NCBI GenBank assembly: GCA_937975855.1
Contig: CALJTT010000004.1
Span: forward strand, 5,583 to 69,582
Source of the DNA: Minisyncoccota bacterium
GTDB lineage: Bacteria; Patescibacteriota; Minisyncoccia; Phycocordibacterales; UBA918
Direction of reading: 5' to 3'
DNA: 64,000 nt
The notes under the pieces are model-generated. The model saw only the letters and a list, made by a program, of their open reading frames with translations. It made no database searches and was not told where the DNA came from. How positions within the stretch are numbered: position 1 is the first letter of the stretch; every line of letters starts with the position of its first letter. Below, piece by piece: positions 1 through 44,014 of the stretch. The translations under genes were made by a program, and so were the position numbers.

Positions 1-2506
1 TGTTGGCCAAACCAGAAGTCGCGTCTATGGAGCCAAACTCACTGATCGCCAAGCTGGTCAAAGTGTGACTGCCAACGTTTGAACTTAGGATGAATTGCCC
101 GCCTAAATAAATTGAAGAGACATCGGTATCAACAGTTGCAATAAGTGCGCCAGTTGAACTTGCTGTTATATCTGCATTAATGGTGACTTGCGGATACACG
201 TCGTATACACCCAGCTCGACTCCATTGTCAGTCAACCTAAAACAATATGTAGTCCCTTCAACGGCAAGTGCGGTAGCTTGGATCGAATATTCTAGCTCCA
301 AAAACTGAGTGACCGTCATAGTAGTCGCCGCCACAGTGTCGCTAATATCTTTTGTGGCCGCATTAGGTGTGAGGAAAGAAACGTTCTCGTCGGTCACACC
401 ACCTATCGCCACAGCGATATTTGTAGTGTCTGTACCGTCAGTCAGATTTACTGAATCAAACATTTCAAACTCGTCACCTACAGTATCAATTGCCGACCAG
501 CCAGAGCTAAGTTCACAGGTGGCACCAGCGACAGCAAATTCCAATTGGTAAGCCATGGGATCAGATGTAGTAGAACCTTCCACCGAAACACCCAGACGTA
601 ACCGCTTAGGGGAAAGTATCTGCAAGGCATCTATAGACGTGTCTTCTGCGCCACCGGTTGCAGAAGTGGCTGCGGACTCTAAACCATCGTCGTTTCGCCA
701 ATGATAATGGGTCAAAGTCACGTCAGGACTGACAATCGTAGTTGAACCAGCCAAGGCGACAGGCGCGTCAGGAAAAGGATCAGTTCCTGTGATTCCAATA
801 TCGATCAATGGGTTGGCTATCTGTAGGTCGAATGTAGATCCGTCTGCAGCCATGTTAGTAGCATCAAACACAACGTACCCACAAAACGTTGTCGTTGGAT
901 TCAATACAACAGCGGCCCCAGAGAACGTACTTGTTCCGTTAGCCGAACTGAACCCGTCTGAATCCGTTGCGCCAAATTGTAATTCTCCGCCAGCGTACGT
1001 TTCAGAATCACAGTCATAAGGCGACGTTGTATCCAGATCGTAAAACACTTTTACGTTTTCAATGCCAGCATTAGCGTCCAAAGTACCAGTCTCGGTTAAT
1101 GTCAAAGACGACAATGTGTTTGGGACGAGAGATTCAATCACAAATGTACCACCTGCATAATTGTCGGAAGTGTTAGCTTTTACAACGGCTGCTTGCGTAC
1201 CTGTAGCGCTCACCTTAATGTCAGGCCCGATGTTGTCCAGAGTCTCGCCAAAACGATCGTCAGTAGCGGCCTCCCACCAGGTGACGTAAAGACGCTCGAA
1301 ATTACTTGGGTCAAGGGCGGGTTTGCGAATATCGCCCGGCGAAGCGTTAACAGGGCCAATCTCACTTCCCCATGATGTCATGCCATCCGTAGATTGTTTG
1401 TAGTAAATATTTGCCGTTGAAACATCGCCAGCCGTGTCCTGGATAGCATAAGCGGCGTAAACATGGCCGTTGTTTTGGTCAATTGCAACTGCTACATCCA
1501 ACAATCCTCGGCCAACTTGGTTGGTAATGGCGTCTGACATTGTTGTCCAGGCTGATCCATCGTAAACAGCACTTTGGACATCATCATTATCGTCAGTCAG
1601 AATGTCATTGTCAGCCGCATATATTAAATAAATGTAACCAGTAGACTGGTCAATGGTGGCAGACATGCCGCCGTCGTACTCTGCGCTCTCAGACACACTT
1701 GTGTCGACATTGCTCCAACTAGCAGACCAACTTACACCATTCCAAATTTTACTTCGAATGAGGTTTGCTGAAATGTCACGATTGATCGCCATTACATCAC
1801 CACCAGCAAGAGGCATCAAGATGGTGTGGTCGTTTCGTAAGTCGAACGGGCTGACGCCTACTTCGTTCCAATTCGCTACATTGTTGCAAGTTGCACTACA
1901 AGAAACAGCATATGAGTCGCTGTTGTCGTTTGCGGCGGCGTACAGCGTGCCATCGGTCGCTTTAGTAAACGCCAAAGTGTTTATTGAGGCAGAGAAAGTT
2001 GGAACCTGCAGCGAGTTACTGCTGATATTCGTCGGAGCTGCACCTGAGAGCAAAGTGTCTGTAGTTGTGTCGAGCCGGTTGTAGAACAAGTCGTCGTCGC
2101 TAGTGTCCATTGTAACGATATGAATATTCACACCAGCATCACCAGGCGTCCACTTGTCGTACCAGACACCGATTCGTATGCAGTCCGTCTGACTGTCCAC
2201 CAACACCGTAGTACCCCATGTGGCGCCGGCATCTGTGGATTTTCTGTATACACATTGCCCTGTGCTATCGCGATAAAACGAGTACCCTATCTGGTCAGTT
2301 ACAAAAACGGTTTGCGTACCGGTATTGTTGTTAGTCCGAGCGTTAGTGCTACTTGTAGTGTCTATAGTAACAACAGCGGCCTCGGCGCTGGTCGGCGAAA
2401 AAAGTGGATTCAATAATTGCGTCCCAAGTAAATCAAACACTAGCAAAAACACCAGCCAAGAACTGAGTCCATTTTGTAGAATAGTAAAACCTCGCAGTTG
2501 TTTCAT
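1..2506 (-). CDS. Secreted BNR/Asp-box-repeat (sialidase-like beta-propeller) protein, 3'-partial (stop lies beyond window start). Absent from supplied ORF track. The C-terminal part carries a W-R-N-D-D-G ... C-F-R-L-T-D-N-G domain also present in the giant protein.
   Basis: Manual minus-strand translation from ATG at 2506 (MKQLRGFTILQNGLSSWLVFLLV..., signal/TM) reads open to position 1. No competing ORF of 60 aa or more exists except short plus-strand ones. Perfect Asp-boxes S-T-D-A-G-A-T-W (~2215-2250) and S-T-D-G-M-T-S-W (~1370-1400). Motifs HYHWRNDDG and YCFRLTDNG parallel FRWRNDDG / LCFRVTDQG in the giant protein. Confidence 0.55.
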   Translation of the reverse strand, partial: MKQLRGFTILQNGLSSWLVFLLVFDLLGTQLLNPLFSPTSAEAAVVTIDTTSSTNARTNNNTGTQTVFVTDQIGYSFYRDSTGQCVYRKSTDAGATWGTTVLVDSQTDCIRIGVWYDKWTPGDAGVNIHIVTMDTSDDDLFYNRLDTTTDTLLSGAAPTNISSNSLQVPTFSASINTLAFTKATDGTLYAAANDNSDSYAVSCSATCNNVANWNEVGVSPFDLRNDHTILMPLAGGDVMAINRDISANLIRSKIWNGVSWSASWSNVDTSVSESAEYDGGMSATIDQSTGYIYLIYAADNDILTDDNDDVQSAVYDGSAWTTMSDAITNQVGRGLLDVAVAIDQNNGHVYAAYAIQDTAGDVSTANIYYKQSTDGMTSWGSEIGPVNASPGDIRKPALDPSNFERLYVTWWEAATDDRFGETLDNIGPDIKVSATGTQAAVVKANTSDNYAGGTFVIESLVPNTLSSLTLTETGTLDANAGIENVKVFYDLDTTSPYDCDSETYAGGELQFGATDSDGFSSANGTSTFSGAAVVLNPTTTFCGYVVFDATNMAADGSTFDLQIANPLIDIGITGTDPFPDAPVALAGSTTIVSPDVTLTHYHWRNDDGLESAATSATGGAEDTSIDALQILSPKRLRLGVSVEGSTTSDPMAYQLEFAVAGATCELSSGWSAIDTVGDEFEMFDSVNLTDGTDTTNIAVAIGGVTDENVSFLTPNAATKDISDTVAATTMTVTQFLELEYSIQATALAVEGTTYCFRLTDNGVELGVYDVYPQVTINADITASSTGALIATVDTDVSSIYLGGQFILSSNVGSHTLTSLAISEFGSIDATSGLAN

Positions 2507-2546
2507 GACTCCGTCCTTATATAGTAACGTACTGTTGCCGTTAACT

Positions 2547-4466
2547 TTATTGGCTCTGTGAACTGGTAGAAGTGGTGGTTGAAGAATCCAAAATCAACGT
2601 ATCATCATCGCTATACAGTTCTTCCACCACGGGGATATTTGGGGTACTTAGGTCAAGATCAAAATCTTCGCCTAGCGCACTGGTAGATGTTGTAGCAGCA
2701 GAAGTGGCGGAAGTGCTCAAGTCTAATGTTCCAACAGCCGGGTCTTCATTTTCAAAATTTGTATCAATGGTCGGGTCTGGGCCAGCAACCTCTTCAGTTT
2801 CATCCTGAACGACCTTAGGTGCAGAAGGTGCAACTAGTGCTCTTGTTTCCCCTGTGGACTCTGGCTCAGGCAATTTGTCAGGCAACTCCACCGGCAACTG
2901 ACCCAAAGGAATGATTTCACCCGTCACAAGGTCAAAACCTTTTGTAGCAGTGTCGCCGTTTCCGTATATGGCGTCGTACACAACAACCATTCGAGGGTTC
3001 GAGACAGCCACTCCGTCGGAGTCAGAAATTTCGTTATAAGTTTTGCTTACAGTGTCATAAGTCATCAAAGACTGAGAACCGTCACTAGCCCGAACGTTCC
3101 AAATTACCAAACTCCCTCGTACATGTGGAGCGATGTCGTGCTCTGGAGATTCAGTAAGCCTGCTTAGCGAGCCTGACTCGAGGAGCATAATTTCCCAGTT
3201 ATTGTCAATCCAGCGTTGCCAAACGGTAGTATTGCCAGCACGAGTTGGCTGCATGTTGTTTACGCTTGTTGTAGTCAAAACTTGCTCTTCACCACTATCC
3301 ACATCATAAGCAACAATTTGGTAACGATCGTCTATCAAACGATGCCATACAATCGTATGTGAAACTGCGTCGTAATAAGGTGAAGAATCATCGACCAAGT
3401 TATCGGTTATCTTTTGTTCAATATTATTTCTGCGTAAGAAAAGTTCAAGATCTCCATCCGAGTCTGGTGCAGCAAAAAGATCGTCTTTCAAGAAAGAACT
3501 GTCAGAAGAATTCTTTTTACAATAAAAGCTGCCGTCGTCCACGGTTGTACATTCTGTCTCGTTGAAACTAAATGGAGACGAACGCTCGATAAACTGCACT
3601 ACTGTCGGATCGACATTATCAGGTGTGGAACTTGCAGTCGATGTGGCTATCTCTTGAATTGTTGAAGTAGAAACTTCCACACTTTCAGATTCAGGCTCAG
3701 GCTCCTTCTTACTGCTGGAAAAATCTTGCTTCACTTCCGACACTGTAGTGGTCGAGAGAGTTGTTGTAGCTACATCATTATTATCATTGTCGCTTACAGC
3801 TACAGCTTCGGATGTCGTTGCATTACTCGAGGAAGATATTTGAGATTCTGGGGTGTGATCCAAAACTTCCGATACCAAAACTGGTTCGCTGGTGCTGGCC
3901 AAAGTGGTCGTGGCGCTGTCAAGAGAATCCACAGTGGCTTCAGAAGCTGACGATGTAGCAGTGCCTGAAACAGCGGGCTTATCAGGTGGCACCTCATCCA
4001 ATGAAACTGCTGTTACAACTGTATCGGAGACAGAGTCAGTTTCGGTCTGGAACTCTGATAATTCACCGTCCAAAGCAGATTCATCTGGAGCAGCTAGTTC
4101 TTCTACTGAAATAGCGGTTTCATCTGTCACTTCACTATCCTGCTCTTCTTCTATTTCTATTGTATCCAGCAAATCTAAAGTGATTTCATCTTCTGTATCA
4201 ACAATATCTATAACTTCTGCTGTAGCAATGGCGGGCAATTCATCTTCGTTTGCATGCACAAACAGAGGCTGCATCAGCAAAGAAAGCAGCAAGAAAACTG
4301 CACAGAGTGTATACACAACGTTGAAACGAGAATTAGAACTGGCAGGTATTGAAGATGCCATATCCGCGGAAAAGTTTTCTAATTTGGTGAGTCGTGTAGA
4401 AGTATTGTTATATAAGGTTATTTTGTTTCTTTTGAGTGCCATAAATTTGACGTGGCAAAATGCCAT
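2547..4466 (-). CDS. Secreted acidic Ser/Thr-rich protein with C-terminal beta-propeller-like (TolB/DPP-IV-like) region. Probable true start is at the internal Met (MASSIPASS..., ~4361), giving a signal peptide.
   Basis: 639-aa ORF. Hydrophobic segment VVYTLCAVFLLLSLLMQPLFVHA then a D/E/S/T-rich low-complexity half. The C-terminal half has repeated hydrophobic/W-containing strands. Confidence 0.5.
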   Translation of the reverse strand: MAFCHVKFMALKRNKITLYNNTSTRLTKLENFSADMASSIPASSNSRFNVVYTLCAVFLLLSLLMQPLFVHANEDELPAIATAEVIDIVDTEDEITLDLLDTIEIEEEQDSEVTDETAISVEELAAPDESALDGELSEFQTETDSVSDTVVTAVSLDEVPPDKPAVSGTATSSASEATVDSLDSATTTLASTSEPVLVSEVLDHTPESQISSSSNATTSEAVAVSDNDNNDVATTTLSTTTVSEVKQDFSSSKKEPEPESESVEVSTSTIQEIATSTASSTPDNVDPTVVQFIERSSPFSFNETECTTVDDGSFYCKKNSSDSSFLKDDLFAAPDSDGDLELFLRRNNIEQKITDNLVDDSSPYYDAVSHTIVWHRLIDDRYQIVAYDVDSGEEQVLTTTSVNNMQPTRAGNTTVWQRWIDNNWEIMLLESGSLSRLTESPEHDIAPHVRGSLVIWNVRASDGSQSLMTYDTVSKTYNEISDSDGVAVSNPRMVVVYDAIYGNGDTATKGFDLVTGEIIPLGQLPVELPDKLPEPESTGETRALVAPSAPKVVQDETEEVAGPDPTIDTNFENEDPAVGTLDLSTSATSAATTSTSALGEDFDLDLSTPNIPVVEELYSDDDTLILDSSTTTSTSSQSQ

Positions 4467-4548: not shown

Positions 4549-5307
4549 TTATTGGTTGAAAAAGTCTGCAAGGATAATCGAAAAATCTCGGAAGCTCATT
4601 CTTCCATCACCGTTGAAATCCATTGTTTGCGATCTGCTGCTCCAGGCACCCATAAATGCACTTATGTCCTTCAGAGTTATCTTCCCATCGCCATTGACGT
4701 CTGTTTTTGCAAAATCTTTAACAGCAAAATTAATACTAGAAAAATCAGTGTTTTCGTCAAAATTAAGTAAAGAAAGCCGCATTCTGTCATCATCCATGGA
4801 AAGCACCTCAGTACCCTCTCCATCTCCCGCAACAAAATTGACATCTTTAACCTCTATGGTGTATTGCCCTGGTTCCAAGGCTCTGAAATTCAAAGTTGCG
4901 ATCTGATGTTTACCCAAAAAACCTCTTTTAAAGGTTCCTCCACTAAGCTTTACCGATGTGGTGTCTATTTCTGGATCTGCAGTCCAGATAGTGAGTACTG
5001 ATTGACCACGGTCAACTCCAAACACATCGACTTTACTTTTGGTGAATTCTACAGTTATTTCTACTGCATTAACTGGTGTAGTAACATCAGCATAAACAAC
5101 CACGGGAAAAACTGAACCCACTTCGATGGTGTTGGTTGCTGTCTCAAAATATACAGATGACATGTTGGACGAACCGGTTAAGGCGAGCAAGCTAGCAGTT
5201 GCAAGGCCGGTTAGAATTGCTGGGAACATAAACTTCACAGTAGAACTCGCTCGTCGTCTGTACATCAAGTTTTGAAAATATCTTTTGGTTTTAGCCCAGA
5301 AAAACAT
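4549..5307 (-). CDS. Secreted protein with cohesin-like domain plus C-terminal dockerin (adaptor-type cohesin+dockerin protein)
   Basis: Signal/TM (FPAILTGLATASLLALTG). The central ~130 aa match the cohesin-like pattern shared with 5999..7768 and 35159..36697 (VNAVEITVEF...SVLTIWTADP). C-terminal duplicated Ca-binding dockerin repeats DVNGDGKITLKDISAF / DFNGDGRMSFRDFSIIL. Confidence 0.5.
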   Translation of the reverse strand: MFFWAKTKRYFQNLMYRRRASSTVKFMFPAILTGLATASLLALTGSSNMSSVYFETATNTIEVGSVFPVVVYADVTTPVNAVEITVEFTKSKVDVFGVDRGQSVLTIWTADPEIDTTSVKLSGGTFKRGFLGKHQIATLNFRALEPGQYTIEVKDVNFVAGDGEGTEVLSMDDDRMRLSLLNFDENTDFSSINFAVKDFAKTDVNGDGKITLKDISAFMGAWSSRSQTMDFNGDGRMSFRDFSIILADFFNQ

Positions 5308-5313
5308 ATTCGA

Positions 5314-5988
5314 TTACAGTGCGGTTAGTTCTGCCCTAAGTTTATCTGCTTGTGTTTTAGAAAGAATCAAAGCTTCTTTAGTTTCTCTAACCTGAGAAAG
5401 AATAACGCCAATTTCCTCAGAGTCAGCTGCTCTTCCCTCTAACAAAGTGTCGATGATTTTCTTTTGTGAGCGCACAAGAGTCGAAAACAAATCGCTCTGA
5501 ACTTCTTCGTTGGCAATAAGAGATTTCCACTGGTCAAGAGAGTAGTTGTCGTTCTGCTTTTTACCAGTTAGTGACGAAAGTTGTTCTACGTAAGATCCGT
5601 AAACACCAATCTCGCGTGCAAATCTAGAAACCATCACAGCTTTTCGTTCTGAATAAAAATTTCCGCAAAGTACAAAGAGCTGCTCTAACTCAATCAATTC
5701 GTAACGCGGTAACACACTGTCGAGCGAGCCCAAGAGTTTGTTAAACCTACTTCTGTCATCAATGGCACAATCACGCACGATTGATTCTGTGATGCTGTCC
5801 GCGCCATTTCTAGCTGTCGTTTCTGCAATGGTCGATAGAAGAGCCTGTTGTTCGGCCAACTGTATTCTGATTGTAGATTCTAGATCTTCAGTCCGCTGGT
5901 TGACGATGTACGAGCTGAGTAAGGCTACTAATAATAAGAAAAGGATTCCCAATAAGAACCATTTATATTTGTGAGCACTTTCGATCAT
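5314..5988 (-). CDS. N-terminally membrane-anchored helical/coiled-coil protein of unknown function
   Basis: 224-aa ORF with single N-terminal TM (WFLLGILFLLLVALLSSYIV). The remainder is predicted helical. Tight spacing with flanking genes. Confidence 0.45.
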   Translation of the reverse strand: MIESAHKYKWFLLGILFLLLVALLSSYIVNQRTEDLESTIRIQLAEQQALLSTIAETTARNGADSITESIVRDCAIDDRSRFNKLLGSLDSVLPRYELIELEQLFVLCGNFYSERKAVMVSRFAREIGVYGSYVEQLSSLTGKKQNDNYSLDQWKSLIANEEVQSDLFSTLVRSQKKIIDTLLEGRAADSEEIGVILSQVRETKEALILSKTQADKLRAELTAL

Positions 5989-5998
5989 ACTGAATTGT

Positions 5999-7768
5999 TT
6001 AGTCTTTTTCGGCTAGTTTTGTAACATCTTGGATTTCCTTTTCGACTGCTCGCTGTGAATTTTGAAGCGCCTTGTCGAATGTTTCTATCATAGCAGCTTC
6101 TGCCTTGGTTAGCTTGTTGGTTTTACGAGATTTGCGCAGGTTTGCCTCTTGCGACTGCAGGTCGGTTTGCAGGCTTGCGAATTCACGATGCAGAATATCC
6201 AAGGCTTCAGAAGATTCTCGCCCCACAGCTCCACGGAATTTTTGAAAAACGAAGAGGAGATACCAAATTCCGAAGAACAATAACATCGTTAACAGAAGTA
6301 ACGGAACAAGAATAGACATTGCGTTAACCACCTGACTTCCTAACCTGATGTACCCGGGCTCTTGAACAGCGATACGCTTAATTTCTGAAATTTCGCTTTG
6401 CGCACCGTGCTGGTCGATAGACTGTGCAGATACTTCGTATACGCCAGAATACAGAACTCCTTCTGGAATAAAGGCAAATTCTCCGGCTTCGTTCGCTGTG
6501 ATCTCGTAGACATTGGGTTCACTACCAACGCGTTTGAAAAAAATCGTTATCGTAGAGTTCGGCCTAGAAATTCCTTTAATCACTGGTATCACGTCACCAC
6601 TCATCTCTGTTGGAACATCGGTGAAGGCGGGCTTTTCAAAAGACTCGATAGTGAAAGAATGGGTCGCAATCAGACTATTGCCAGCGTGGTCAAAAGCCTC
6701 GATGATAACTGTGTGGTAACCAGGATCTAACCTGGGCAAAGTAAGAGTGCCAGATGCAGTTTTATCCGTAAATTCATAAGGTTCTTCGTTATCCAGCTTT
6801 ACAAGATAACGGTTAATTCCAGATGTAGAATCCTTAGCGACGAGATTTAGTGTCTGTTCTGGCGCAGACATGTCAGCGTCTTGTGGCGAAAGAATTTCAA
6901 AACTAGCAGGTGCCATAGTGTCAACTGCCAAGCGATAGCTCGACACCTTACCCCAACCATCTGCATTCTTGAACTGGATATGGAAATAAGAAATTCCCTC
7001 TTCGAGTTCTGTTAGTGTGATTGTTCTGATAGGATTTTCGTAAACCTTGGTTGGAACAGTTGACGGTGAACCATTGAGCAGCGTACGAACTGCAGTAACG
7101 CCTGTGGGTAACGACCACGACAGCAGAGCTGTATTAGTCGCATGCCAAGCTGCTGGATTATCATGAGTCTTAGAGACAATCTTTGGGGCTGCAGGAGTGT
7201 TGGCCGGGGCGATATATTCAATAATCCGTTCTGGCTCGGGCGCAGTTGTCGGTGCTTGGATTGTAAAAGATCCACCATTCATGGCCGTCAGAACGTTAGT
7301 GCCGCGGCCGTCATTGGCCAGAACAGAGCCGTTGCTAAACGTGACTCTTGGGGATCCTGCATTTTTTGCCCTAAATGTTATAGACAAAACTGTTCCCACA
7401 CTGCCAGAGTAACCGGCAGGAACACCGCCGCTAAAGGTAACCGTACCAGCCGCGTTAGAAAAGGCTGGTTCAGCCACCCAAAGATTAAAAATCGAACCAG
7501 AGCGATTGATAGAAACGACCGAAAGCTCGTTTGGATTAAAATTTATCGTACCTTCTGCTGCGTTAACCGGATCACCATTGGTAACAACCTGGACTCTAGC
7601 CGTAAAAGTTGCACCGGCATTATAAACACCAGTGTCAGGATTTAAACGCAAAGACGCAGCTTCTGCTGTGTTCGCAAAAAAACTGAATGCAGCTAAAACT
7701 GCGGCGAAAAATATGTGCGGCGTGGTTTTATTGGATATTGTCATAGTGGCGATCGTTAGGGTCTTCAA
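5999..7768 (-). CDS. Type-I membrane protein: signal peptide, N-terminal cohesin-like domain, Ig/FN3-like domains, C-terminal TM helix and conserved cytoplasmic coiled-coil tail (cohesin-bearing cell-surface anchor)
   Basis: Signal (FFAAVLAAFSFFANTAEA). Cohesin-like block LRLNPDTGVYNAGATFTARVQVV...VNAAEGTINFNPNELSVVSI..SIFNLWVAEP...TVTFSGGVPAGYSG. TM (AMSILVPLLLLTMLLFFGIWYLLFVF) followed by a charged helical tail. Paralog of 35159..36697 and 7728..8792. Confidence 0.55.
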   Translation of the reverse strand: MKTLTIATMTISNKTTPHIFFAAVLAAFSFFANTAEAASLRLNPDTGVYNAGATFTARVQVVTNGDPVNAAEGTINFNPNELSVVSINRSGSIFNLWVAEPAFSNAAGTVTFSGGVPAGYSGSVGTVLSITFRAKNAGSPRVTFSNGSVLANDGRGTNVLTAMNGGSFTIQAPTTAPEPERIIEYIAPANTPAAPKIVSKTHDNPAAWHATNTALLSWSLPTGVTAVRTLLNGSPSTVPTKVYENPIRTITLTELEEGISYFHIQFKNADGWGKVSSYRLAVDTMAPASFEILSPQDADMSAPEQTLNLVAKDSTSGINRYLVKLDNEEPYEFTDKTASGTLTLPRLDPGYHTVIIEAFDHAGNSLIATHSFTIESFEKPAFTDVPTEMSGDVIPVIKGISRPNSTITIFFKRVGSEPNVYEITANEAGEFAFIPEGVLYSGVYEVSAQSIDQHGAQSEISEIKRIAVQEPGYIRLGSQVVNAMSILVPLLLLTMLLFFGIWYLLFVFQKFRGAVGRESSEALDILHREFASLQTDLQSQEANLRKSRKTNKLTKAEAAMIETFDKALQNSQRAVEKEIQDVTKLAEKD

Positions 7769-8792
7769 AAGACTGGGCTGCTGCTTCTGGCTGTGTTCTA
7801 AGTGACTCGATTTCTTTGTCTACACGGCGCTTTTTGTAACGCTTAAATACAGTAAACGCGAACACGAAAGCCATCAGGAATAATCCAAGGTAAAGTATGT
7901 AACTAAGGATTTGGTAAGGTGTAATTGTTCGAAGTTCTGGATCGGGAATGTAATTTGCGATGTACTCGTTCCCCGCTTTATCTATCGCCTTGACACGAAC
8001 TACACTGTTAAGTGATTGATCTTCCAGCACATAAGGGCTTCTAGACTCGATCCAAGGTGCGTCAGCTCTCCCCCACAAAAACGCGCTAGTTTGTGACAAC
8101 GGTTCCTCCATAACCTCGTAGTGGTCGATTCCAGTTTCTTTGTCAGTCGTGTTGAAACTAATATAGTACTTGCCGCTAAAGGCTTTTTCTTCTTTATCTA
8201 GAATGATACCAAAGGCTTGAGGATCGTTATCATCAGCCGAAATTCTGTCAGTCCATGGGTCGGAAACAACCGCACTGGCGCCAGCCAGTATCGTTAACGT
8301 GGTAGGCAGCAATGTTGTTTTGGCGACAGTGCCAAAACCGTCGTTCAAATAAACCATAGTGTCCTTTGAAAAATCAACGACTGCAGCTTCCTCTTGTCCA
8401 GACTCCACATCAGAACGAACAACTATTTCGAATAACGTATTGGTTAAACTTGGATCGCCGTCAATTCTGCCACAATAGCCGTTTGGTATACCTCCAGCAA
8501 AAGAAATCTGATTTGATTCCGGGTTCAAAGTTGGTGGCTCCACCCACATTGAAAAAATTGACTCGCCAGAAGACACATCAACCGCGTTTATAGGGCCATC
8601 CAGGGAAAGCACACCTGAAGCGGCGTTGATACATTCATTCACAGACTCGTCAGTGTCGATTCTGACCTTAAGTATGAGCGCATCCCCTCTTCCTAAAGTT
8701 TTGGTCGCAGGGTCGATATACAAAGTAGCCGCCTCAACCTGCGCAGCAAGAAAAAAAGGCAGTACAAAAAACGGAACCAAACGACGTAGCAT
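7728..8792 (-). CDS. Type-I membrane protein with N-terminal cohesin-like domain and C-terminal TM anchor (shorter paralog)
   Basis: Signal (LVPFFVLPFFLAAQVEAA). LYIDPATKTLGRGDALILKVRID...INAVDVSSGESIFSMWVEPP...ISFAGGIPNGYCG aligns with the other cohesin-like domains. C-terminal TM (ILSYILYLGLFLMAFVFAFTVF) plus basic tail. Confidence 0.5.
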   Translation of the reverse strand: MLRRLVPFFVLPFFLAAQVEAATLYIDPATKTLGRGDALILKVRIDTDESVNECINAASGVLSLDGPINAVDVSSGESIFSMWVEPPTLNPESNQISFAGGIPNGYCGRIDGDPSLTNTLFEIVVRSDVESGQEEAAVVDFSKDTMVYLNDGFGTVAKTTLLPTTLTILAGASAVVSDPWTDRISADDNDPQAFGIILDKEEKAFSGKYYISFNTTDKETGIDHYEVMEEPLSQTSAFLWGRADAPWIESRSPYVLEDQSLNSVVRVKAIDKAGNEYIANYIPDPELRTITPYQILSYILYLGLFLMAFVFAFTVFKRYKKRRVDKEIESLRTQPEAAAQSFEDPNDRHYDNIQ

Positions 8793-8840: not shown

Positions 8841-8866
8841 ACAAAAAACCCACCTCGTGGTGGGAG
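8841..8866 (-). terminator. Rho-independent terminator downstream of the WxL-like gene 8912..10042 (minus-strand sense: cccacc-acga-ggtggg then UUUUUUGU)
   Basis: Plus strand aaaaaacccacctcgtggtgggagatagg. The revcomp gives the hairpin followed directly by a T6 run. Confidence 0.7.
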
Positions 8867-8911
8867 ATAGGATTTTTTGTTTGTAACTCCAAGCTTAGAG
8901 TCCAGTTTCGG

Positions 8912-10042
8912 CTAAAAAACTGGTGTTGCTACGTATGTCAGCGTAGCGGTGTAGTCGTCTGCAGCCTCCTGCAGAGCAGTAACTTCTACTTTGTAGATGA
9001 CATTGGCTGTCCCTTCACCAGCAACAGACCCGTCTGTTGGTCCGTCGTGTCGAAACACTTCAACTGGTGACGATGAGGCCGAAACGAAGTTCGCTCCTCC
9101 AGCGTATAGGTCAGTCAAACCTGATGTAAGAGTTGTGTCATCTGATGATAGTCCCCAGTGACCAGCTTCGTTTTCAAGTCCGGGCGTAGCACCTGGAGCT
9201 GCCCACGCAGTTGGTGTTCCTGTGTAACTACCATCAACGAATCCGTCAATATCAGCACCTGTTGCTGATGACAGCTGTTGATCTGCAGCGACTGTTACCA
9301 CAAAACCATTTGAAGCGTTTGTAGACACTTCTAGACTTTGAGCAGCAGTACTGGCAGTATCGGCAGCCAATTCACCAAACGGAATAGTTGTAGACGAAGT
9401 GTCACCACCAGTGGTGTCACTTCCTACAACCGTTCCAGCTGCAACTCCGTTGATTGTGAAAGTGAAAATCGTATCAACTGTAGCAGTAACTGTTACTGAA
9501 TTTACAATTGCTACTCTAGTTTCACCCGTATCAGCAGAGCCAGAAGTAACGTTAATCTCGTATGAACCTTCTGTAGCTGGATTTGTGATCTGGTTTACGC
9601 CAGCGTCTGCATTTGTACCGATTTGAATTGTCACTGTAGCGTTAGCTGCAATAACACCGGTTCCAGATGTCAGAGTAATGACTTGACCAGCTGCGCCTAC
9701 TCCCCATGTAGCTGCTGCTGGAGCGGCTGCAAGAGTTTCGTCGACGCCGTCGACCGCAAGGTCGACATCACCGAACGCGATACCTGCAACACCAGTGAAC
9801 GCTGGATCAAGTGTAACTGTAATAGTTTCACCTGCTGCTACACCGGTTGGTGCAACGAATTCAATGGTGTGATCTGAGACTACGCTGGGCGCAGAATCAG
9901 TAAGGGTATCGCTAAAAGTTGTGACATTTGCCGCTTCTGCGAACTGCAGAACTGGGAAGCCTAGTGACCATAGGATCACAGCAAGACTTGCCACTGCGGC
10001 GATTGCTTGGAGTACTGAGAACGCATGATTTTTGCGCGTCAT
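8912..10042 (-). CDS. Secreted Thr/Ala/Gly-rich surface protein with WxL-like C-terminal domain (G-H-W-G-L ... T-L-T-Y-V-A-T-P) and conserved N-terminal T-x-F-S-D-T-L-T-D-S motif. Likely an abundant, monocistronic structural/surface protein.
   Basis: 376-aa ORF with N-terminal hydrophobic signal/anchor. C-terminus has GHWGL then a terminal YTATLTYVATPVF resembling the two-motif WxL cell-wall-binding domain. Strong intrinsic terminator immediately downstream (8841..8866) and a 240-nt leader upstream. Paralog at 40864..41991. Confidence 0.5.
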   Translation of the reverse strand: MTRKNHAFSVLQAIAAVASLAVILWSLGFPVLQFAEAANVTTFSDTLTDSAPSVVSDHTIEFVAPTGVAAGETITVTLDPAFTGVAGIAFGDVDLAVDGVDETLAAAPAAATWGVGAAGQVITLTSGTGVIAANATVTIQIGTNADAGVNQITNPATEGSYEINVTSGSADTGETRVAIVNSVTVTATVDTIFTFTINGVAAGTVVGSDTTGGDTSSTTIPFGELAADTASTAAQSLEVSTNASNGFVVTVAADQQLSSATGADIDGFVDGSYTGTPTAWAAPGATPGLENEAGHWGLSSDDTTLTSGLTDLYAGGANFVSASSSPVEVFRHDGPTDGSVAGEGTANVIYKVEVTALQEAADDYTATLTYVATPVF

Positions 10043-10283: not shown

Positions 10284-11423
10284 CTATCCAGTCCAGTTAA
10301 ACAACAAAATTGAGAAGTCTTCAAGTCCCACGTTGCCGTTTTGGTTTATGTCAGCCGGAGGATCAGAATCTCCACCGTTTGATTGCCACCAGAAAATTAA
10401 AATCGAGAAGTCTATCAGGTTTATAAAAGTGTCTCTGTTGAGGTCAGACGGCTGTGTTGCTTGACCATCAACCCCTACAAACAACTGTAGCGATGTGCTG
10501 AAGCCACTCTCCAGGGTCAAAGGCGGGTTTCCAACCAATGAGCGCGCTCGTAGAATATGCTCTGCAATAGCAAGCGTTCCTGTATCGAGCAAAAACGACC
10601 AATCACCATCTGCATTTGTTTGTACAGTTTCAACAACATCACTATCGTCTATGTGAATTTCTATTTGTGCGTCGGGTGGACCCTGTCCTTCAATCAGAAC
10701 CTGGCTGCCAGGGTCTGCGTTCTGATTTTCCGCACGCAACGTAGGAGGCAGTATGATTCCTGACAAATTCGTGATCGCGCCTTGTGTGACGTCAAAAGTG
10801 TTATTTTGGGTGATCGATCTAACGTTTTCGTTGTCAGTAGACCAAACACCAACCGTTGCAGTTCCTGGTTCAGCTTCAACAGAGAACTCAAATTCGCCGT
10901 CATTGTCAGCCCTTACTGTTCCGACACTTTCTGTATCCAAAAGAAAGTTTATGGTGCTGCCTGGATACCCGGTACCACGGATATTAATAATAGTATCTCC
11001 CAGTTCGACTTCGGAACCACCGCCTGAAGAACCGCCGCCTGAAGAACCACCACCACCAGTACCAGCAGGCTCTACCGTACAAGACGAGGAACAGAAATCG
11101 CCGTCATCGTTATTGCCGTCGTCACATTCCTCCGCAAAGACAGTTTGTAAAATACCATCCCCACAGTACGGGCCGAATTCGCACATAGAGTCACATTGTC
11201 GGCCAGCGATTGTCTGGCTGTATGCGCCAATTTCTGCTGGCACGACATCACACTCTTCATTACTGTCGACAACACCGTCACCACAAATACTAATTTCCAA
11301 AGTGGTAGTTGCCACCCGTTGAGCCGCTACAATGTGCGGGAAAATTATGAATAGAATGATTGTAAATAAAAAGTAACGACTCATGTTAACGACCTTTCTG
11401 TTTTCGACGCACGAACACGACAT
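10284..11423 (-). CDS. Secreted protein with Cys-rich CGDG...EECDDGN repeats (Myxococcus-type cysteine-rich repeat), Gly/Ser linker, Ig-like region and C-terminal dockerin. Probable start at the internal Met (MSRYFLF..., ~11384).
   Basis: Signal peptide FLFTIILFIIFPHIVAAQ. Repeats CGDGVVDSNEECD and CGDGILQTVFAEECDDGNNDDGDFCSSSCT. Linker GGGGSSGGGSSGGGS. Dockerin repeats DLNRDTFINLIDFSILIF / DINQNGNVGLEDFSILLFNWTG. Confidence 0.55.
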   Translation of the reverse strand: MSCSCVENRKVVNMSRYFLFTIILFIIFPHIVAAQRVATTTLEISICGDGVVDSNEECDVVPAEIGAYSQTIAGRQCDSMCEFGPYCGDGILQTVFAEECDDGNNDDGDFCSSSCTVEPAGTGGGGSSGGGSSGGGSEVELGDTIINIRGTGYPGSTINFLLDTESVGTVRADNDGEFEFSVEAEPGTATVGVWSTDNENVRSITQNNTFDVTQGAITNLSGIILPPTLRAENQNADPGSQVLIEGQGPPDAQIEIHIDDSDVVETVQTNADGDWSFLLDTGTLAIAEHILRARSLVGNPPLTLESGFSTSLQLFVGVDGQATQPSDLNRDTFINLIDFSILIFWWQSNGGDSDPPADINQNGNVGLEDFSILLFNWTG

Positions 11424-12333
11424 AAAGTATCGCGATCAAAATGGCAAACACCGGGAGCAAAATCGAAATCTTGTGTGCCAAAGACAAACCAACAAATCCA
11501 AAGTTAGCCGCCTGTACTGTGCCAGCAGGTAAAACAGTCAACGACAGGTCACCCTCCTGCTTAAGCTCGTCGCTGTTGAACACCCTATATCTGGCAATAT
11601 AACTACCGGCCGGCAATCGTGTCGGCAAAGATGCTGATACAGTTTCTGTGTTGTACGGTGAGATCTTGGTAATCTTCCCCACATTAGAAGTCTCCTCCAG
11701 TAAGACTTCGCCAGTTTTATCATAAATTCTGAACTCAACATCTGAAGGTGAGATTTCTACGTTACCAGTGTTCTCTATCAACATGTCGAAAACGATTTTT
11801 CCAGGGAAGAACAACCAAGCAAGTTTGGAACCTTCGTTCAGATCCGATACAGAAATTTTTCTGACTCTAAAATCTTCAATCTTTTTATCTATAACGGAAA
11901 GATTTATATCGACCCGCGCTCCTAATGAAATGTTAACTGCACCCTGTGTAACAACCCCGTCGGATGGCACAGTTCTGATTCTAATGGCACCTCCATACTC
12001 GGTAAATCCTGCGTCAGGCGGAACGCTGACACGAACCGTCATCGGCACTTTTTGAACACCGGCGGGTAATATGATCTCTTCGCCTTCAGCAATCTGAAGC
12101 CAACCTTCGAGGTCAGGGGCATCAATGGTTATCTCTGCCTTCTGCTCATCAGACGGATCGCTTCGGACCAATAGAATCTGTTGTTCGTAAATGGAGTTTC
12201 TGGTCAAGCTAGTGTTGCGCACGTACGGAGGAGTAATACCGAAGCCCGCTTGAACTACACTAATTTCAAGCGCAAGAAAAGCGACAAAGGTAAACACCAA
12301 AAAAAGCCAACTCTTCCGCTTCGATAAAATCAT
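11386..12333 (-). CDS. Cell-surface protein with signal peptide and C-terminal TM anchor plus basic tail, DUF916/CscA-like (partner of WxL-like proteins)
   Basis: 315-aa ORF with signal (LFLVFTFVAFLALEISVVQA). The ectodomain has the alternating-hydrophobic pattern typical of DUF916 (GFGITPPYV...ILLV.SDPS...ITIDAPD..W). C-terminal TM ILLPVFAILIAILYVVFV followed by RRKQKGR. Paralog at 39685..40749. Confidence 0.4.
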   Translation of the reverse strand: MILSKRKSWLFLVFTFVAFLALEISVVQAGFGITPPYVRNTSLTRNSIYEQQILLVRSDPSDEQKAEITIDAPDLEGWLQIAEGEEIILPAGVQKVPMTVRVSVPPDAGFTEYGGAIRIRTVPSDGVVTQGAVNISLGARVDINLSVIDKKIEDFRVRKISVSDLNEGSKLAWLFFPGKIVFDMLIENTGNVEISPSDVEFRIYDKTGEVLLEETSNVGKITKISPYNTETVSASLPTRLPAGSYIARYRVFNSDELKQEGDLSLTVLPAGTVQAANFGFVGLSLAHKISILLPVFAILIAILYVVFVRRKQKGR

Positions 12334-12426: not shown

Positions 12427-14328
12427 CTACCAGTCAACAGCTTCTGCAATAACGGCTGTAAATGTGTTCAATCCTTCGTAGCTACCAGCTACTGTAATCG
12501 GAGTCGGGTCAGCGCCACCAGGAACATAGATACCCCAGTAAGTTGTTCCCCTAGATGCTGTTGTGGTAGCCGTTGTTGTTGACTTCAGAACATCAAGTTC
12601 AAGTTCTTGGTTTGTAGTTGATGACAATACAAGTCCAGTTGTATTATATGCAACAGTTGTGTCAGAGAACTCCTGGTAAGTGGAGTCTATCGTCGAAGAG
12701 GAAGCTCCTCCACAAGGTGTTCCGACACTGAAGTTTGGACACATTGATTCACCTCTTACTTCTTGGTCAATACCGGTATTTCCGATGTTAATTATTTCAG
12801 AAGTAGTCGTGCCCGCGTCGCCACCTAGCAATGTATATCCATCACCTGGAGCGAGTGCGCCGTAAGGAATTTCAGCTGTTGCAAGGTCAAGGGCTGCAAA
12901 TTGAAGTACTTCGACACCGATGTTTGAAGCCACTAGACTACTAGTTGCAAAGTTGTCATCACTAGGAGCTACTGCTGCAAGCCAGTTTTCTGCCTCAAAC
13001 GGTGAAGCGACAGATCCGTTATCAGTTGCGTCAGCGACAAACCAAAGTGGGAATGTACAGTTAAACTCTTGCGTGTCATCAGTGATCCCAGTACAGCTAG
13101 TTGTAGAGGCTGTACATGTCAGATTCCAAGTAGAAGTTGCAACTCCGCTGGTGTAACAATTGTTTGGGTCGTAATCAGGAGTACCTGAGTTACAGCTGGT
13201 TGTCCCTATACCTGAACGATATACAGATACTTCAAAGCCAACAATTTCACTAGATGTGGCACCTGAACTGTTAATGCAGCTGTTTCCATCAGACGCAGTG
13301 AAGTCAAGCGAGAAGCCAGGGGTCTGATCACCAGGAACAGTCAGTGCTATATCAGCACCACCGTTAAGGTTAATGTTAGCCCCCAGAATCGTTGGAGCAA
13401 CGTTGTTGATGTCAAAAGAACCAACAATTGGAGCAGATGCTTCGTGTCCATGTTCGTCAACCAAGAAACCGACTGCGGGGTATGTTCCGTCACGGACCGG
13501 CGAACTAACTGCATAAGAAGAGGTGGCGTTAATTATGCCGTTGAAGGTTGAACTTCCAAGGGAGTTCGTAACACAGCTGTTAGTAGTAGTGCTGTAGTCG
13601 ATAGCTTGCTGACAAACTACAAGTGTTAGTGTGTCCGAAGCATCCACAATGTCAGGGTCAGTCGAAGTAGAGAAGAAGTTTAGAGTAGCTCCTGGATCAA
13701 CCGGTCCATCGTTGTAGAAGTCAGTTAGAACTGGTCGGCTGTTCATGTGGAAAGGAGGAGCTGTATCATCGGTAGTCGTACCTTGTGTTGCTATAGTTGT
13801 ACATTCAGGTTGTACCAAATCACCATCACAAACCCAAGCGAACCAGTCGTTTGATTCTGAGAATTGTGTACCAGGATCGTCAGCAAGCTCAACTGTGGTT
13901 GTTGAAACTAGTGCTACTGTGTCAGATGGTGTCGCTGTGGATACTCCCCACTGAACTCCTCCACCACAAGTTGGCGCCGCCCCGATCTGTGGTGTAGGCG
14001 AAGCGTTGGTGCTACATATCAATAAATAGTAGTCAGCCCCGTTGGCGTCGCTACCAACTGCTGTCCATTGAATTTCCTCACCAGAGTTAGTGGGAGTTGA
14101 AGTTGAAGACCCTCCGATTTCAAAAGGCTGAACAACAAAAGTTGGAGGAGTGTTCAAAACAGTCAAACTGGTGGTAGCGGTTTGCGCCGACACTCGCTGT
14201 AATTCTTGGTTACCCACATCCACCATCAAGGCAAACATGAAAACACAAACTCCTACTACGGCAGAAAGAATCGATATTCTTCCGGCTGTTTTGGCAAAAC
14301 GTGGCAATTCATCTAAGTTGTACGACAT
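12427..14328 (-). CDS. Secreted/N-anchored Thr/Ser-rich surface protein. It ends with the same Y-W-G-I...N-x-F-T-A C-terminal tag as the giant protein.
   Basis: 633-aa ORF with N-terminal TM (ISILSAVVGVCVFMFALMV). The C-terminus ...LELDVLKSTTTATTT..TTYWGIYVPGGADPTPITVAGSYEGLNTFTAVIAEAVDW parallels the giant protein end ...LELDLSKPTTTTPGVTDNLYWGIEVPFGSASRPHTGINSFTAIGD. Confidence 0.5.
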   Translation of the reverse strand: MSYNLDELPRFAKTAGRISILSAVVGVCVFMFALMVDVGNQELQRVSAQTATTSLTVLNTPPTFVVQPFEIGGSSTSTPTNSGEEIQWTAVGSDANGADYYLLICSTNASPTPQIGAAPTCGGGVQWGVSTATPSDTVALVSTTTVELADDPGTQFSESNDWFAWVCDGDLVQPECTTIATQGTTTDDTAPPFHMNSRPVLTDFYNDGPVDPGATLNFFSTSTDPDIVDASDTLTLVVCQQAIDYSTTTNSCVTNSLGSSTFNGIINATSSYAVSSPVRDGTYPAVGFLVDEHGHEASAPIVGSFDINNVAPTILGANINLNGGADIALTVPGDQTPGFSLDFTASDGNSCINSSGATSSEIVGFEVSVYRSGIGTTSCNSGTPDYDPNNCYTSGVATSTWNLTCTASTTSCTGITDDTQEFNCTFPLWFVADATDNGSVASPFEAENWLAAVAPSDDNFATSSLVASNIGVEVLQFAALDLATAEIPYGALAPGDGYTLLGGDAGTTTSEIINIGNTGIDQEVRGESMCPNFSVGTPCGGASSSTIDSTYQEFSDTTVAYNTTGLVLSSTTNQELELDVLKSTTTATTTASRGTTYWGIYVPGGADPTPITVAGSYEGLNTFTAVIAEAVDW

Positions 14329-14423: not shown

Positions 14424-15638
14424 TTATTCGTACCTAATCGCATCCAGTGGGTTCAAAGTAGAAGCTCGTCTTGCGGGAAATATTCCTGTTAGGTACCCAA
14501 CGGCAGCTGAGAATATAGCAATGAAAGCTAGGAAGTCCAAAGGAAAAGCAAATAATGAAACTGCCTGTCCACCATACTGACCCGCAATAAAGTTGAGGAA
14601 CAGGTTAACCGTTACCCCCAATATAACTCCCATCAAAATACCAGTCACTCCCCCTAGGAAACCTACAACGATTGATTCTGAAACAAAGAGATACTTCACG
14701 TCGTTTGGAGAGGCGCCAATTGTACGCATGATACCGATTTCTTTGGTCCGCTCTAGCAAGGTAACAGTCATGGTGTTGAACATACCGATAGCTGACACAA
14801 TAAGTGCAATTCCTCCAAATGTGGCCAAAACAGCCTGAATACCTTTGAAGATCTGCGTTGCTTGCTCAACAGTTTTTGATAAAGCGGTCACACGGTAACC
14901 TTCTTCAACTAGCCAAGCTTCCACCAAGGGTAGATTTTCGTTGTCCACAACATTAACCTGCACTCTTTCATATTCGTCGATGCCTACGTATTCACGCAAC
15001 TCTGGCAACATCATCAATGCGTTAAGAACGCCCTCTTCTTTGGTGATACCTTTTACTATGTATTCTTTGTCCAGAATAATCTCGTTGACCAAATCAGTTC
15101 CGTCATCCGCCGGTACCAGTAGACGAAAAGACACTCTTTCTCCAATAAAAGATTCGGCATCTTCGTCTTCAATTCCAAATAGTTTAAGCACCGCCGGTGA
15201 AAGCATGATCGACGAAGCGTCATTGATATCTTCTTCTACAAAAGCCTCTCCGGCACTAGGGGTAATACCGGCATATCGCAGATAGGCTGGCTCGGCACCT
15301 TGAACAAAAACGTTACCTGTCAGGCCTTTGTATGTGACCAAAGCTGGGAATCGCGCCAGCGGCGCTGCATCAACCACAGCCTCGTTTGCTTCAAATTTTT
15401 GAACAATTTCAGGTGTAAGGGTAAGACCTTGTGCGCCTGTAGCAGAAACACCTAATGACAACAAAGAGTCACCAAATACAATCTGCTCTAAGATAATTTG
15501 CTGCAAACCAAACCCTAGACCCACCAAAATAACCACTGCACCAGTTCCTACACCCATACCCAAAATCGTCAACCATGTACGCAACGGGTTGGTTTTAAAC
15601 ATTCGAGTGGATAGTTGCGCTAGGTCTTGAACTCGCAT
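14424..15638 (-). CDS. ABC transporter permease, MacB/FtsX family (N-terminal TM, large extracytoplasmic domain, C-terminal FtsX 3-TM bundle)
   Basis: 404-aa ORF. N-terminal TM LTILGMGVGTGAVVILVGLGFG. The C-terminus has FtsX-like helices (LATFGGIALIVSAIGMFNTMTVTLLERTKEIGIMRTIGA...). Placed 1 nt from the upstream ATPase gene. Confidence 0.7.
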   Translation of the reverse strand: MRVQDLAQLSTRMFKTNPLRTWLTILGMGVGTGAVVILVGLGFGLQQIILEQIVFGDSLLSLGVSATGAQGLTLTPEIVQKFEANEAVVDAAPLARFPALVTYKGLTGNVFVQGAEPAYLRYAGITPSAGEAFVEEDINDASSIMLSPAVLKLFGIEDEDAESFIGERVSFRLLVPADDGTDLVNEIILDKEYIVKGITKEEGVLNALMMLPELREYVGIDEYERVQVNVVDNENLPLVEAWLVEEGYRVTALSKTVEQATQIFKGIQAVLATFGGIALIVSAIGMFNTMTVTLLERTKEIGIMRTIGASPNDVKYLFVSESIVVGFLGGVTGILMGVILGVTVNLFLNFIAGQYGGQAVSLFAFPLDFLAFIAIFSAAVGYLTGIFPARRASTLNPLDAIRYE

Positions 15639-15639
15639 A

Positions 15640-43577: not shown

Positions 43578-44014
43578 ACCAAACGCCGCAGAGTGCCAGT
43601 AACCACACCCCATACGTGAACATCATCAGCGTCACCAATGGGAATCGGTGCGTAACCTTCTTTGGCTGAAACCAGCTTACTCTGTGATGAAGTTTTATAT
43701 AACTGCTTAACGACAAGTTCACCGTAGACTGCCGCCACAACTATGGACAGATGTTCCGCTGGAACTGAACGATCTACTACCAAAACATCTCCGTCAAAGA
43801 TTCGCTTTCCTTCCATAGAGTCACCGCTGACACGCACAAAGAAAGTCGCAGTCTCGTTATCGATCATTAGATCATTTAAATTCAAAGGTCTTTCAACCAC
43901 ATCGTCGCCAGGAGTTGGAAAGCCAGCCGCTGGCTGTACGTCGTACAAAGGGGCTTCCACACCATCCACCTCCGCCTTGTTTACCTTTGTGACATTCGAG
44001 TCAGTTACTTTCAT
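43574..44014 (-). CDS. umuD: UmuD-like S24 LexA-family self-cleaving peptidase subunit
   Basis: MKVTDSNVTK... with an A-G cleavage site context (QPAAGFP), the catalytic Ser motif (VSGDSMEG) and a Lys (VVKQLYK). ~146 aa, so UmuD-sized rather than LexA. ATGA overlap with umuC. Confidence 0.7.
   Translation of the reverse strand: MKVTDSNVTKVNKAEVDGVEAPLYDVQPAAGFPTPGDDVVERPLNLNDLMIDNETATFFVRVSGDSMEGKRIFDGDVLVVDRSVPAEHLSIVVAAVYGELVVKQLYKTSSQSKLVSAKEGYAPIPIGDADDVHVWGVVTGTLRRLV

Follow-up and report, generated by a model that had tools for sequence, protein, structure and literature searches.

Cohesins and dockerins are the hallmark modules of cellulosomes, and the question raised by the locus described here is what such modules do in a bacterium of the Candidate Phyla Radiation (CPR). 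The locus lies in a 64,000-nt stretch of contig CALJTT010000004.1 (Minisyncoccota bacterium, assembly GCA_937975855.1), which we refer to as the window. A preliminary description of this DNA had proposed that it encodes four cohesins and three dockerins, that three of the cohesin proteins are membrane anchors, and that together these proteins look like a scaffold for the assembly of surface proteins, apparently used for display and not for cellulolysis. The proteins in question are the cohesin anchors COH354, COH589, and COH512 and the dockerin proteins DOCK379 and DOCK651 (the numbers give their lengths in amino acids, aa), together with a 252-aa adaptor-type protein that carries one module of each kind. 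They are distributed over a main cassette and a second cassette (Table 1), and every gene of interest is on the minus strand, at the coordinates given in that description. We find the region best explained as the docking core of a conserved apparatus for a surface fibre, shared across Paceibacteria (Parcubacteria, CPR).

Cohesin domains in membrane-anchored proteins

A search with the Pfam cohesin family PF00963, which has a gathering score of 24.1 bits, identified cohesins above the cutoff in COH589 (aa 50-154, 25.8 bits) and COH512 (aa 42-132, 27.5 bits), whereas no cohesin was detected when the window's own COH354 and adaptor sequences were scanned with this family. We nevertheless count the N-terminal domains of these two proteins as cohesins because of their similarity to the COH589 cohesin, both by BLASTP (E=1e-15 for COH354 and E=2e-11 for the adaptor) and when families were compared by hhalign (99.8%, E=8e-29, and 98.7%, E=2.6e-16, respectively), and because PF00963 is matched by their orthologues: 9 of 70 in the case of COH354 and many in the case of the adaptor, whose orthologues also carry the dockerin family PF00404. 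A hidden Markov model (HMM) of the family, run against the six-frame translation of the window, recovered exactly four cohesin domains (next match, E=0.7), including that of COH512, which was found with E=1e-34 although it was outside the training set.

Structural modelling covered one of the four cohesin proteins, the adaptor, which also counts among the reasons for accepting its domain as a cohesin. The AlphaFold2 (AF2) model had a predicted local distance difference test score (pLDDT) of 92-96 across the cohesin domain and showed the nine-stranded beta-sandwich (jelly-roll) of PF00963, the fold that had been anticipated. When the model was submitted to Foldseek, all of the top 35 PDB matches were cohesins, at a sequence identity of ~10-15%. 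The best matches were the non-cellulosomal cohesins 2xdh from Archaeoglobus fulgidus (E=4e-8, TM-score 0.81) and 2jh2 from Clostridium perfringens; 2jh2 and 2vo8 are cohesin-like modules of the latter species. Profile searches of the PDB gave weak cohesin and dockerin matches (E=0.006-0.4), and single-sequence PDB searches with COH589 and with the 376-aa pilin-like protein of the main cassette returned nothing useful. We conclude that the four domains are true cohesins, with a binding capacity that is predicted from sequence and model.

COH354, COH589, and COH512 each have a predicted N-terminal signal and a single C-terminal transmembrane (TM) helix with a K/R-rich C-flank, in agreement with the type-I topology that had been attributed to them. 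The tail of COH589 that follows the TM helix (aa 509-589, nt 5999-6244) contains several residues that are invariant across 24 species, and COH512 has a similar tail at aa ~430-512; this conservation suggests an intracellular partner. The cohesin of COH354 has a near-invariant pair of cysteines at aa 54 and 107 (ECINA ... GYCGR), probably forming a disulfide, which is not present in the other cohesins of the locus. The end of the COH354 gene, including its stop codon, overlaps the start of COH589 (7728-7768), and a Nomurabacteria genome shows this overlap too (L001, 10001-10017), suggesting translational coupling of the two anchors.

Three C-terminal dockerins

Examination of the six-frame translation with a Ca-loop regular expression revealed exactly six loops, which form three C-terminal pairs in the adaptor (D1), DOCK379 (D2), and DOCK651 (D3). 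In line with the three dockerins that had been described, each pair consists of two tandem repeats of ~22 residues, with a 12-residue Ca loop of the form D-x-N/D-x-D/N-G-x-hydrophobic-x-x-x-D and a helix, and in the AF2 model of the adaptor a helix follows each Ca-binding loop (pLDDT ~79). The Pfam family Dockerin_1 (PF00404; gathering score, 22.9 bits) matched D1 with 30.5 bits and D3 with 28.7 bits. D2 scored slightly under the cutoff (20.1 bits); it is nearly identical to D3, and Dockerin_1 is matched by 50 of the 51 members of the DOCK379 family (best E=9e-10). D1 is of a different type from D2 and D3. These are genuine dockerins, and their binding to a partner is predicted.

One might read the dockerins as structural, EF-hand Ca-binding tails and the cohesins as ordinary beta-sandwich spacers, with no mutual pairing between them. 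EF-hand Pfam models score almost equal to Dockerin_1 on the adaptor, and a PDB profile search with the tail placed EF-hand proteins ahead of the dockerin 2y3n_B (E=0.006). However, the duplicated loop-helix repeats stand at the extreme C terminus, Dockerin_1 is recognized almost throughout the DOCK379 family, and cohesin and dockerin occur together in one operon in hundreds of genomes. The modules are also better conserved than the proteins that host them. Among 24 genomes, D2 had a mean identity of 82%, compared to 63% for the remainder of DOCK379 and 79% for the ABC ATPase of the locus; the COH589 cohesin had 66%, compared to 52% for the remainder of the protein; and every cohesin domain exceeded the remainder of its protein in conservation. 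Binding interfaces under selection would be expected to show such a pattern, the binding itself being predicted, and we regard the absence of pairing as quite improbable.

The presence of these modules might also point to a cellulosome-like complex for polysaccharide breakdown, the more so as a gene with a glycoside hydrolase family 26 (GH26)-like region lies in the same window (45265-46638). Yet Pfam scans of the cohesin and dockerin proteins and of 51 orthologues found no glycoside hydrolase, carbohydrate esterase, polysaccharide lyase, or carbohydrate-binding module, which extends to the orthologues the earlier statement that no glycoside hydrolase accompanies the dockerins, and the GH26-like protein lacks a dockerin. 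There is one cohesin per protein, anchoring is by TM helix, and the scans of the cohesin and dockerin proteins gave no S-layer homology (SLH) or LPXTG match. The host, moreover, is a CPR bacterium with a genome of ~1 Mb. We rejected the cellulosome reading, since the dockerin proteins carry only DUF4215, immunoglobulin (Ig)-like, or pilin-like modules and no enzymes; already contradicted by the data, it is scarcely credible.

Conservation of the locus in Paceibacteria

COH589 has >944 homologues of equal length and 56-74% identity, and those that are named belong to Candidatus Paceibacteria, Kaiserbacteria, or Nomurabacteria. When each GTDB species was represented by one genome, a scan yielded COH589 relatives in 310 genomes, all of them Paceibacteria. 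The COH354 family is likewise large, with 3753 representatives at 50% clustering.

We sampled 80 loci, called their open reading frames (ORFs), and matched these to the proteins of the window. A 13-gene order was kept in ~70 of the 80 loci. It is present wherever contigs have sufficient length, including the complete 0.99-Mb chromosome CP060229.1. It begins with the genes for the fn3 protein, the ABC ATPase, the FtsX/MacB permease, the 633-aa protein, the 315-aa chaperone-like candidate, the dockerin protein, and the 376-aa pilin-like protein, and continues with COH354, COH589, the 224-aa protein, the adaptor, the 639-aa protein, and the ~2050-aa protein. Distant lineages, among them Jorgensenbacteria, Portnoybacteria, and GWA2_47_21, retain a core that comprises the chaperone-like protein, the dockerin protein, COH354, and COH589, in some cases preceded by the pilin-like protein. 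The 315-aa chaperone-like gene immediately precedes the dockerin gene in nearly all loci in which both were found, and the dockerin gene adjoins or lies near the pilin-like gene wherever the latter is present. The MacB-type ABC transporter is a fixed part of the locus and the most conserved one (~80% identity across genomes); it may energise fibre assembly or release.

Relationship of the locus to the Pam pilus

The Pam pilus of the CPR bacterium Ca. Mycosynbacter amalyticus is built of two-domain pilins that polymerise by donor-strand exchange, in which the strand exchanged is the linker between the two domains; its putative chaperones PamC/D, which are PapD/FimC-like, are anchored by a C-terminal TM helix, and the membrane protein PamR anchors the base of the fibre. 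A donor-only, non-accepting subunit marks the cell-proximal end in this scheme, and the pili are reported to detach easily (Troman et al. 2026, bioRxiv 10.64898/2026.03.03.709456).

The 376-aa protein of the main cassette resembles the Pam pilins in its layout. In its AF2 model (pLDDT 86), a low-confidence linker at aa 180-192 connects two beta domains. Pfam gave no match to this protein or to its 375-aa paralogue in the second cassette. The NCBIfam model CPR_Pam_pilin_C (NF058581), which was derived from the M. amalyticus Pam pilus and has a curated cutoff of 55 bits, was matched at E<=0.01 by 57 of the 67 members of the pilin family (best 1e-7), all of them below the cutoff, and it was the only family matched. 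By these profile comparisons, the 376-aa protein and the Pam pilins are distantly related, and the former is not a member of the family by the curated rule. The pilin-like proteins end in ...LTYVATPVF and have neither the C-terminal LPXTG signal expected of a sortase-dependent pilin nor a TM tail. The signal peptide of the family (aa 1-38) is conserved (FSVLQA...LW.LG, with Q12 invariant and W25 nearly so), and the alignment with DOCK651 runs through it, a hint that targeting or processing may be dedicated.

The likeness to the Pam system extends beyond the pilin. Both systems are CPR-specific and combine a ~38 kDa pilin, in which a linker joins an N-terminal sandwich to a C-terminal Ig-like domain, with putative chaperones that have a C-terminal TM helix; neither has an usher or a sortase, and in both several paralogous subunits are encoded in the locus. 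The 315-aa and 354-aa chaperone-like proteins, with a signal and a C-terminal TM helix, share the arrangement of PamC/D, and a chaperone role of the 315-aa protein is suggested by this analogy. Unlike the Pam system, the present one has a pilin of sub-threshold similarity, no PamR-like FnIII anchor was detected in it, and it has TM-anchored cohesins and dockerin proteins instead.

The 376-aa protein could alternatively form an S-layer or a sheath that is attached to the membrane by cohesin-dockerin pairs. Its family is large and highly conserved (>1,898 protein clusters recovered), and the structural matches are to generic Ig-like folds only. The C-domain of the Pam pilin is, however, the only family signal, and the layout of two domains plus linker, with a membrane-anchored chaperone-like gene adjacent, resembles Pam. 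We assign the S-layer or sheath a small probability.

A dockerin on a pilin-derived protein

The pilin-like and the dockerin proteins are connected by DOCK651 in the second cassette. Its aa 14-193 are homologous to the N-domain of the pilin (hhalign against the pilin family: 97.6%, E=4e-12), and the linker motif is retained, reading RVAIVDxVxVTAxVDT in the pilin and (K/R)YAIV(D/E)KVxIxD(V/I)DT in the DOCK651 family. The C-domain of the pilin, which is the acceptor, is absent, and its place is taken by different modules together with a Gly-rich linker, Ig domains, and the dockerin. Independent metagenome contigs show the same architecture and also the order pilin, chaperone-like protein, DOCK651, HSP20, COH512, followed by a giant protein. 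Since donor-only subunits are cell-proximal in the Pam scheme, DOCK651 could sit at the base of a fibre. By analogy with that scheme, the occurrence of a dockerin on a donor-only subunit, encoded beside a membrane cohesin gene, suggests that a cohesin-dockerin pair tethers the fibre base.

As to which modules might pair, the second cassette contains only a D3-type dockerin and a COH589-type cohesin. Because D2 resembles D3 and because of this content of the second cassette, a pairing of D2 and D3 with COH589 and COH512 would be the parsimonious assignment from the sequences.

These features bear on whether the anchors serve as a generic membrane display scaffold, as had been proposed, which would present any dockerin-tagged protein encoded in the genome and would be functionally separate from its pilin-like neighbours. 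The dockerin proteins do follow one design, in which a variable head at the N terminus precedes a Gly-rich linker, an Ig stalk, and the dockerin, and the heads vary by lineage, being Cys-rich repeats, the pilin N-domain, or other beta-rich modules. On the other hand, the only three dockerins of the window are all within the two cassettes, the dockerin gene keeps its place right after the chaperone-like gene in nearly all loci that have both and near the pilin-like gene where the latter is present, and DOCK651 is itself pilin-derived. The anatomy given in the preliminary description, that of a non-cellulosomal, membrane-anchored cohesin-dockerin system with an adaptor, is retained, while general display of assorted proteins does not seem to be the purpose: the 13-gene locus is conserved, it combines a Pam-like pilin with a chaperone-like protein and a MacB-type transporter, and it has only two or three dedicated dockerin proteins. 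We regard the generic scaffold as rather unlikely. The comparisons indicate that the cohesin-dockerin modules are a fixed, deeply conserved part of one dedicated apparatus, any function in display being putative.

A proposed model for fibre anchoring

We propose that dockerin-bearing proteins of a Pam-like fibre, serving as stalks or terminators, are held by the membrane cohesins, a mechanism to which we give an even chance. Domain identities, membrane topology, conservation of the locus, and the homology of the DOCK651 N-domain to the pilin come from the data; cohesin-dockerin binding and its pairings, polymerisation of the 376-aa protein, and the terminator or anchor role are inferred. COH354, COH589, and COH512 would use short Ig-like stalks to present their cohesins on the outer side of the cytoplasmic membrane, and the secreted stalk proteins DOCK379 and DOCK651 would plug into them non-covalently through the conserved two-repeat, Ca-binding dockerin, with the adaptor as an additional link. 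The fibre would be built of the 376- and 375-aa Pam-like pilins, probably with the assistance of the membrane-anchored chaperone-like protein encoded beside the dockerin gene. DOCK651 could donate a strand to the last pilin while its dockerin ties the fibre base to the membrane, as PamR does in Saccharibacteria; the tethered part might be the Pam-like fibre itself or its accessory heads. A more specific version, in which a donor-strand, Pam-like pilus is held by the cohesin-dockerin joint, its base is capped by DOCK651 (with DOCK379 as the counterpart in the main cassette), and the tails of the anchors couple the fibre to the cell interior, is put forward tentatively, as possible and, on balance, not probable.

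Several results weigh against this model. The 376-aa protein itself scored 21.8 bits against CPR_Pam_pilin_C, under the 55-bit cutoff, and fold searches with it returned Ig-like adhesins and Gram-positive pilins, matches that are generic and compatible with a pilin without being specific. PDB profile and Pfam scans of 35 orthologues of the chaperone-like protein gave no PapD/FimC signal and only weak CopC/E-set matches. DOCK379 has no pilin domain, and when a pilin-linker HMM was run over all ORFs of the locus, its N-terminal strand gave no significant match; a donor-strand role of this strand is conjecture. A mirror-tree analysis (partial correlation of domain distance matrices, 24 genomes) yielded no clear cohesin-dockerin pairs, and all individual pairings are conjectural. 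Finally, the paper on the Pam pilus makes no mention of cohesin or dockerin (bioRxiv 10.64898/2026.03.03.709456).

Comparison with known cohesin and dockerin proteins

The use of cohesin and dockerin outside cellulolysis is as such not new; non-cellulosomal cohesins and dockerins were reportedly surveyed by Peer et al. in 2009. The proteins of the window resemble this group in having modules unconnected with cellulolysis and a single cohesin per protein, and differ from it in their type-I TM cohesins with cytoplasmic tails, in their place within a conserved, pilus-like CPR operon, and in the fusion of a dockerin to a pilin-type domain. With the cellulosomal scaffoldins OlpA/OlpC of C. thermocellum (3ul4, 4dh2) and ScaA/ScaB of Acetivibrio cellulolyticus, they share the logic by which a cell-bound cohesin takes up a dockerin partner, the use of a cohesin-plus-dockerin adaptor, and the fold. 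In contrast to the scaffoldins, they are anchored by a TM helix and not by SLH domains or a sortase, carry no enzymes and no carbohydrate-binding modules, and have one cohesin each. Proteins of the TMEM132/coherin type (PMC6030884) also combine a cohesin homologue and Ig-like domains outside the cell with one TM helix and a cytoplasmic tail. That is the composition of the window's anchors, but the TMEM132 proteins are eukaryotic, have no known dockerin partner, and bear no relation to pili.

Full-text literature searches found no relevant paper that ties cohesin or dockerin to CPR/Parcubacteria or to donor-strand pili. What seems to be undescribed is a large CPR family of TM-anchored cohesins with conserved cytoplasmic tails, cohesins that are fixed inside a pilus-like operon, and the fusion of a pilin domain to a dockerin.

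Organization of the cassettes and neighbouring genes

The features of the two cassettes are listed in Table 1. Exact matching of the window's own proteins retrieved no record; the nearest one is an ENA contig with 99.2% identity over 9.5 kb. The true starts of two proteins are probably a few codons downstream of those given: that of COH589, of which a 99%-identical relative has 581 aa, and that of DOCK379, at M14. Beyond its TM helix, the 224-aa protein has no Pfam or NCBIfam match. The total number of terminator-like sites in the consensus scan was not above chance, so that for the hairpin between the pilin-like gene and COH354 the position alone is suggestive.

Table 1. Features of the main and second cassettes (positions in nt of the window; D1 to D3, dockerins)
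Feature	Position	Strand	Layout	Basis
5' part of the ~2047-aa last gene of the conserved block, running off the window	1..2509	minus		Full 2047-aa ORF on a 99%-identical contig (L003)
639-aa Ser/Thr/Asp-rich surface protein, conserved, after the adaptor	2547..4466	minus		Synteny; no family match
252-aa adaptor-type cohesin+dockerin protein	4549..5307	minus	Hydrophobic helix aa 24-44 (signal or signal-anchor), cohesin aa ~48-175 (nt 4783-5166), D1 aa ~196-252 (nt 4552-4722)	Pfam (Dockerin_1), hhalign, AF2/Foldseek, orthologues
224-aa protein between COH589 and the adaptor	5314..5988	minus	N-terminal TM helix	Position kept in ~60 loci
COH589, 589-aa type-I membrane cohesin anchor	5999..7768	minus	Signal, cohesin aa 36-175 (nt 7244-7663), OmpL47-type/Big_13 Ig-like domains, TM aa ~485-508, ~80-aa cytoplasmic tail	Pfam Cohesin and Big_13, topology
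COH354, 354-aa type-I membrane cohesin anchor	7728..8792	minus	Signal, divergent cohesin aa 20-170 (nt 8283-8735), one Ig-like domain, TM aa 295-316, short basic tail	BLASTP, hhalign, orthologues
Terminator-like hairpin and T-run between the pilin-like gene and COH354	8849..8871	minus		Consensus scan
376-aa pilin-like protein	8912..10042	minus	Conserved signal peptide, N-terminal beta-sandwich aa 41-179, linker aa 180-192, C-terminal Ig-like domain aa 193-376	Pilin comparisons (see text)
DOCK379, 379-aa dockerin protein	10284..11423	minus	Signal, conserved N-terminal strand ATTTLxLSICG, Cys-rich repeats (DUF4215), Gly/Ser linker, two Ig domains (Big_6), D2 aa 326-379 (nt 10287-10448)	Pfam, family matches
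315-aa chaperone-like candidate	11386..12333	minus	Signal, two beta-rich domains, C-terminal TM, basic tail	Topology, position
633-aa surface protein, conserved locus member	12427..14328	minus	N-terminal TM	Synteny; Pfam Tad 19.7 bits, below cutoff (weak TadE/G-like)
MacB-type ABC transporter	14424..16962	minus	FtsX/MacB_PCD permease 14424-15638, ATPase 15640-16962	Pfam
513-aa secreted fn3/Pur_ac_phosph_N protein, first gene of the conserved block	16966..18507	minus		Pfam, synteny
COH512, 512-aa type-I membrane cohesin anchor, COH589 paralogue	35159..36697	minus		Pfam 27.5 bits; BLASTP E=8e-67 to COH589
HSP20-family gene between DOCK651 and COH512	36701..37231	minus		Pfam HSP20
DOCK651, 651-aa dockerin protein	37283..39238	minus	Signal, pilin-type N-domain and linker motif aa ~40-220, Gly-rich linker, Ig domains, D3 aa 597-651 (nt 37286-37450)	Pfam, hhalign, alignment, orthologues with equal architecture and neighbours
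354-aa chaperone-like membrane protein (second cassette)	39685-40749	minus	Signal, C-terminal TM	Weak likeness to the 315-aa protein and WxLIP_PGBD
375-aa pilin paralogue (second cassette)	40864-41991	minus		47% identity to the 376-aa pilin

Three independent metagenome contigs (L084-L086) have the HSP20 gene at the same place, with 68-76% identity; the presence of a cytoplasmic chaperone within a surface-protein operon is unexplained. The pair of the 375-aa pilin and the 354-aa chaperone-like protein is kept in two of these contigs (L085 and L086), in both of which COH512 is followed by a giant gene related to the one found directly downstream of the second cassette in the window. The latter is a 5516-aa ORF (18511-35061, minus strand) with an N-terminal TM helix and DUF2341 as its sole above-threshold domain.

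Directly upstream of the surface-protein region are genes for a UmuD-like S24 peptidase and a UmuC/DinB-type translesion polymerase (42321-44071, minus strand). The GH26-like gene encodes 457 aa without a dockerin, of which the GH26-like region scores 29 bits; it is among the very few plus-strand ORFs of the window and the only one of these with a confident family match. The window also encodes a 2010-aa surface protein (46695-52727, minus strand) with a beta-propeller of the glucose/sorbosone-dehydrogenase type and PKD, CBM_4_9, and Big_7 domains, and it contains a sortase gene (53983-54612) that overlaps the end of the gene for a 667-aa lamin-tail-domain protein (together 53983-56608, minus strand). 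This sortase-type surface system is a separate neighbourhood that is not linked to the cohesin-dockerin locus.

Implications

Paceibacteria are among the most abundant uncultured bacteria of groundwater and freshwater, and we know of no account of how they attach to hosts or surfaces. The locus described here is among their best-conserved surface gene clusters. If the proposed mechanism is correct, it would represent the first cohesin-dockerin-anchored pilus and the first role to be assigned to cohesin and dockerin in CPR bacteria, within an apparatus that hundreds of uncultured species possess. It would provide a model of how a monoderm cell holds a fibre without a sortase signal or an usher, by means of a joint that is strong, reversible, and Ca-dependent, properties that would fit the easy detachment reported for Pam pili. 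For the cohesin-dockerin field, the locus contributes a large family of cohesins anchored by a TM helix, as well as a dockerin of extreme conservation, which may offer orthogonal binding pairs.

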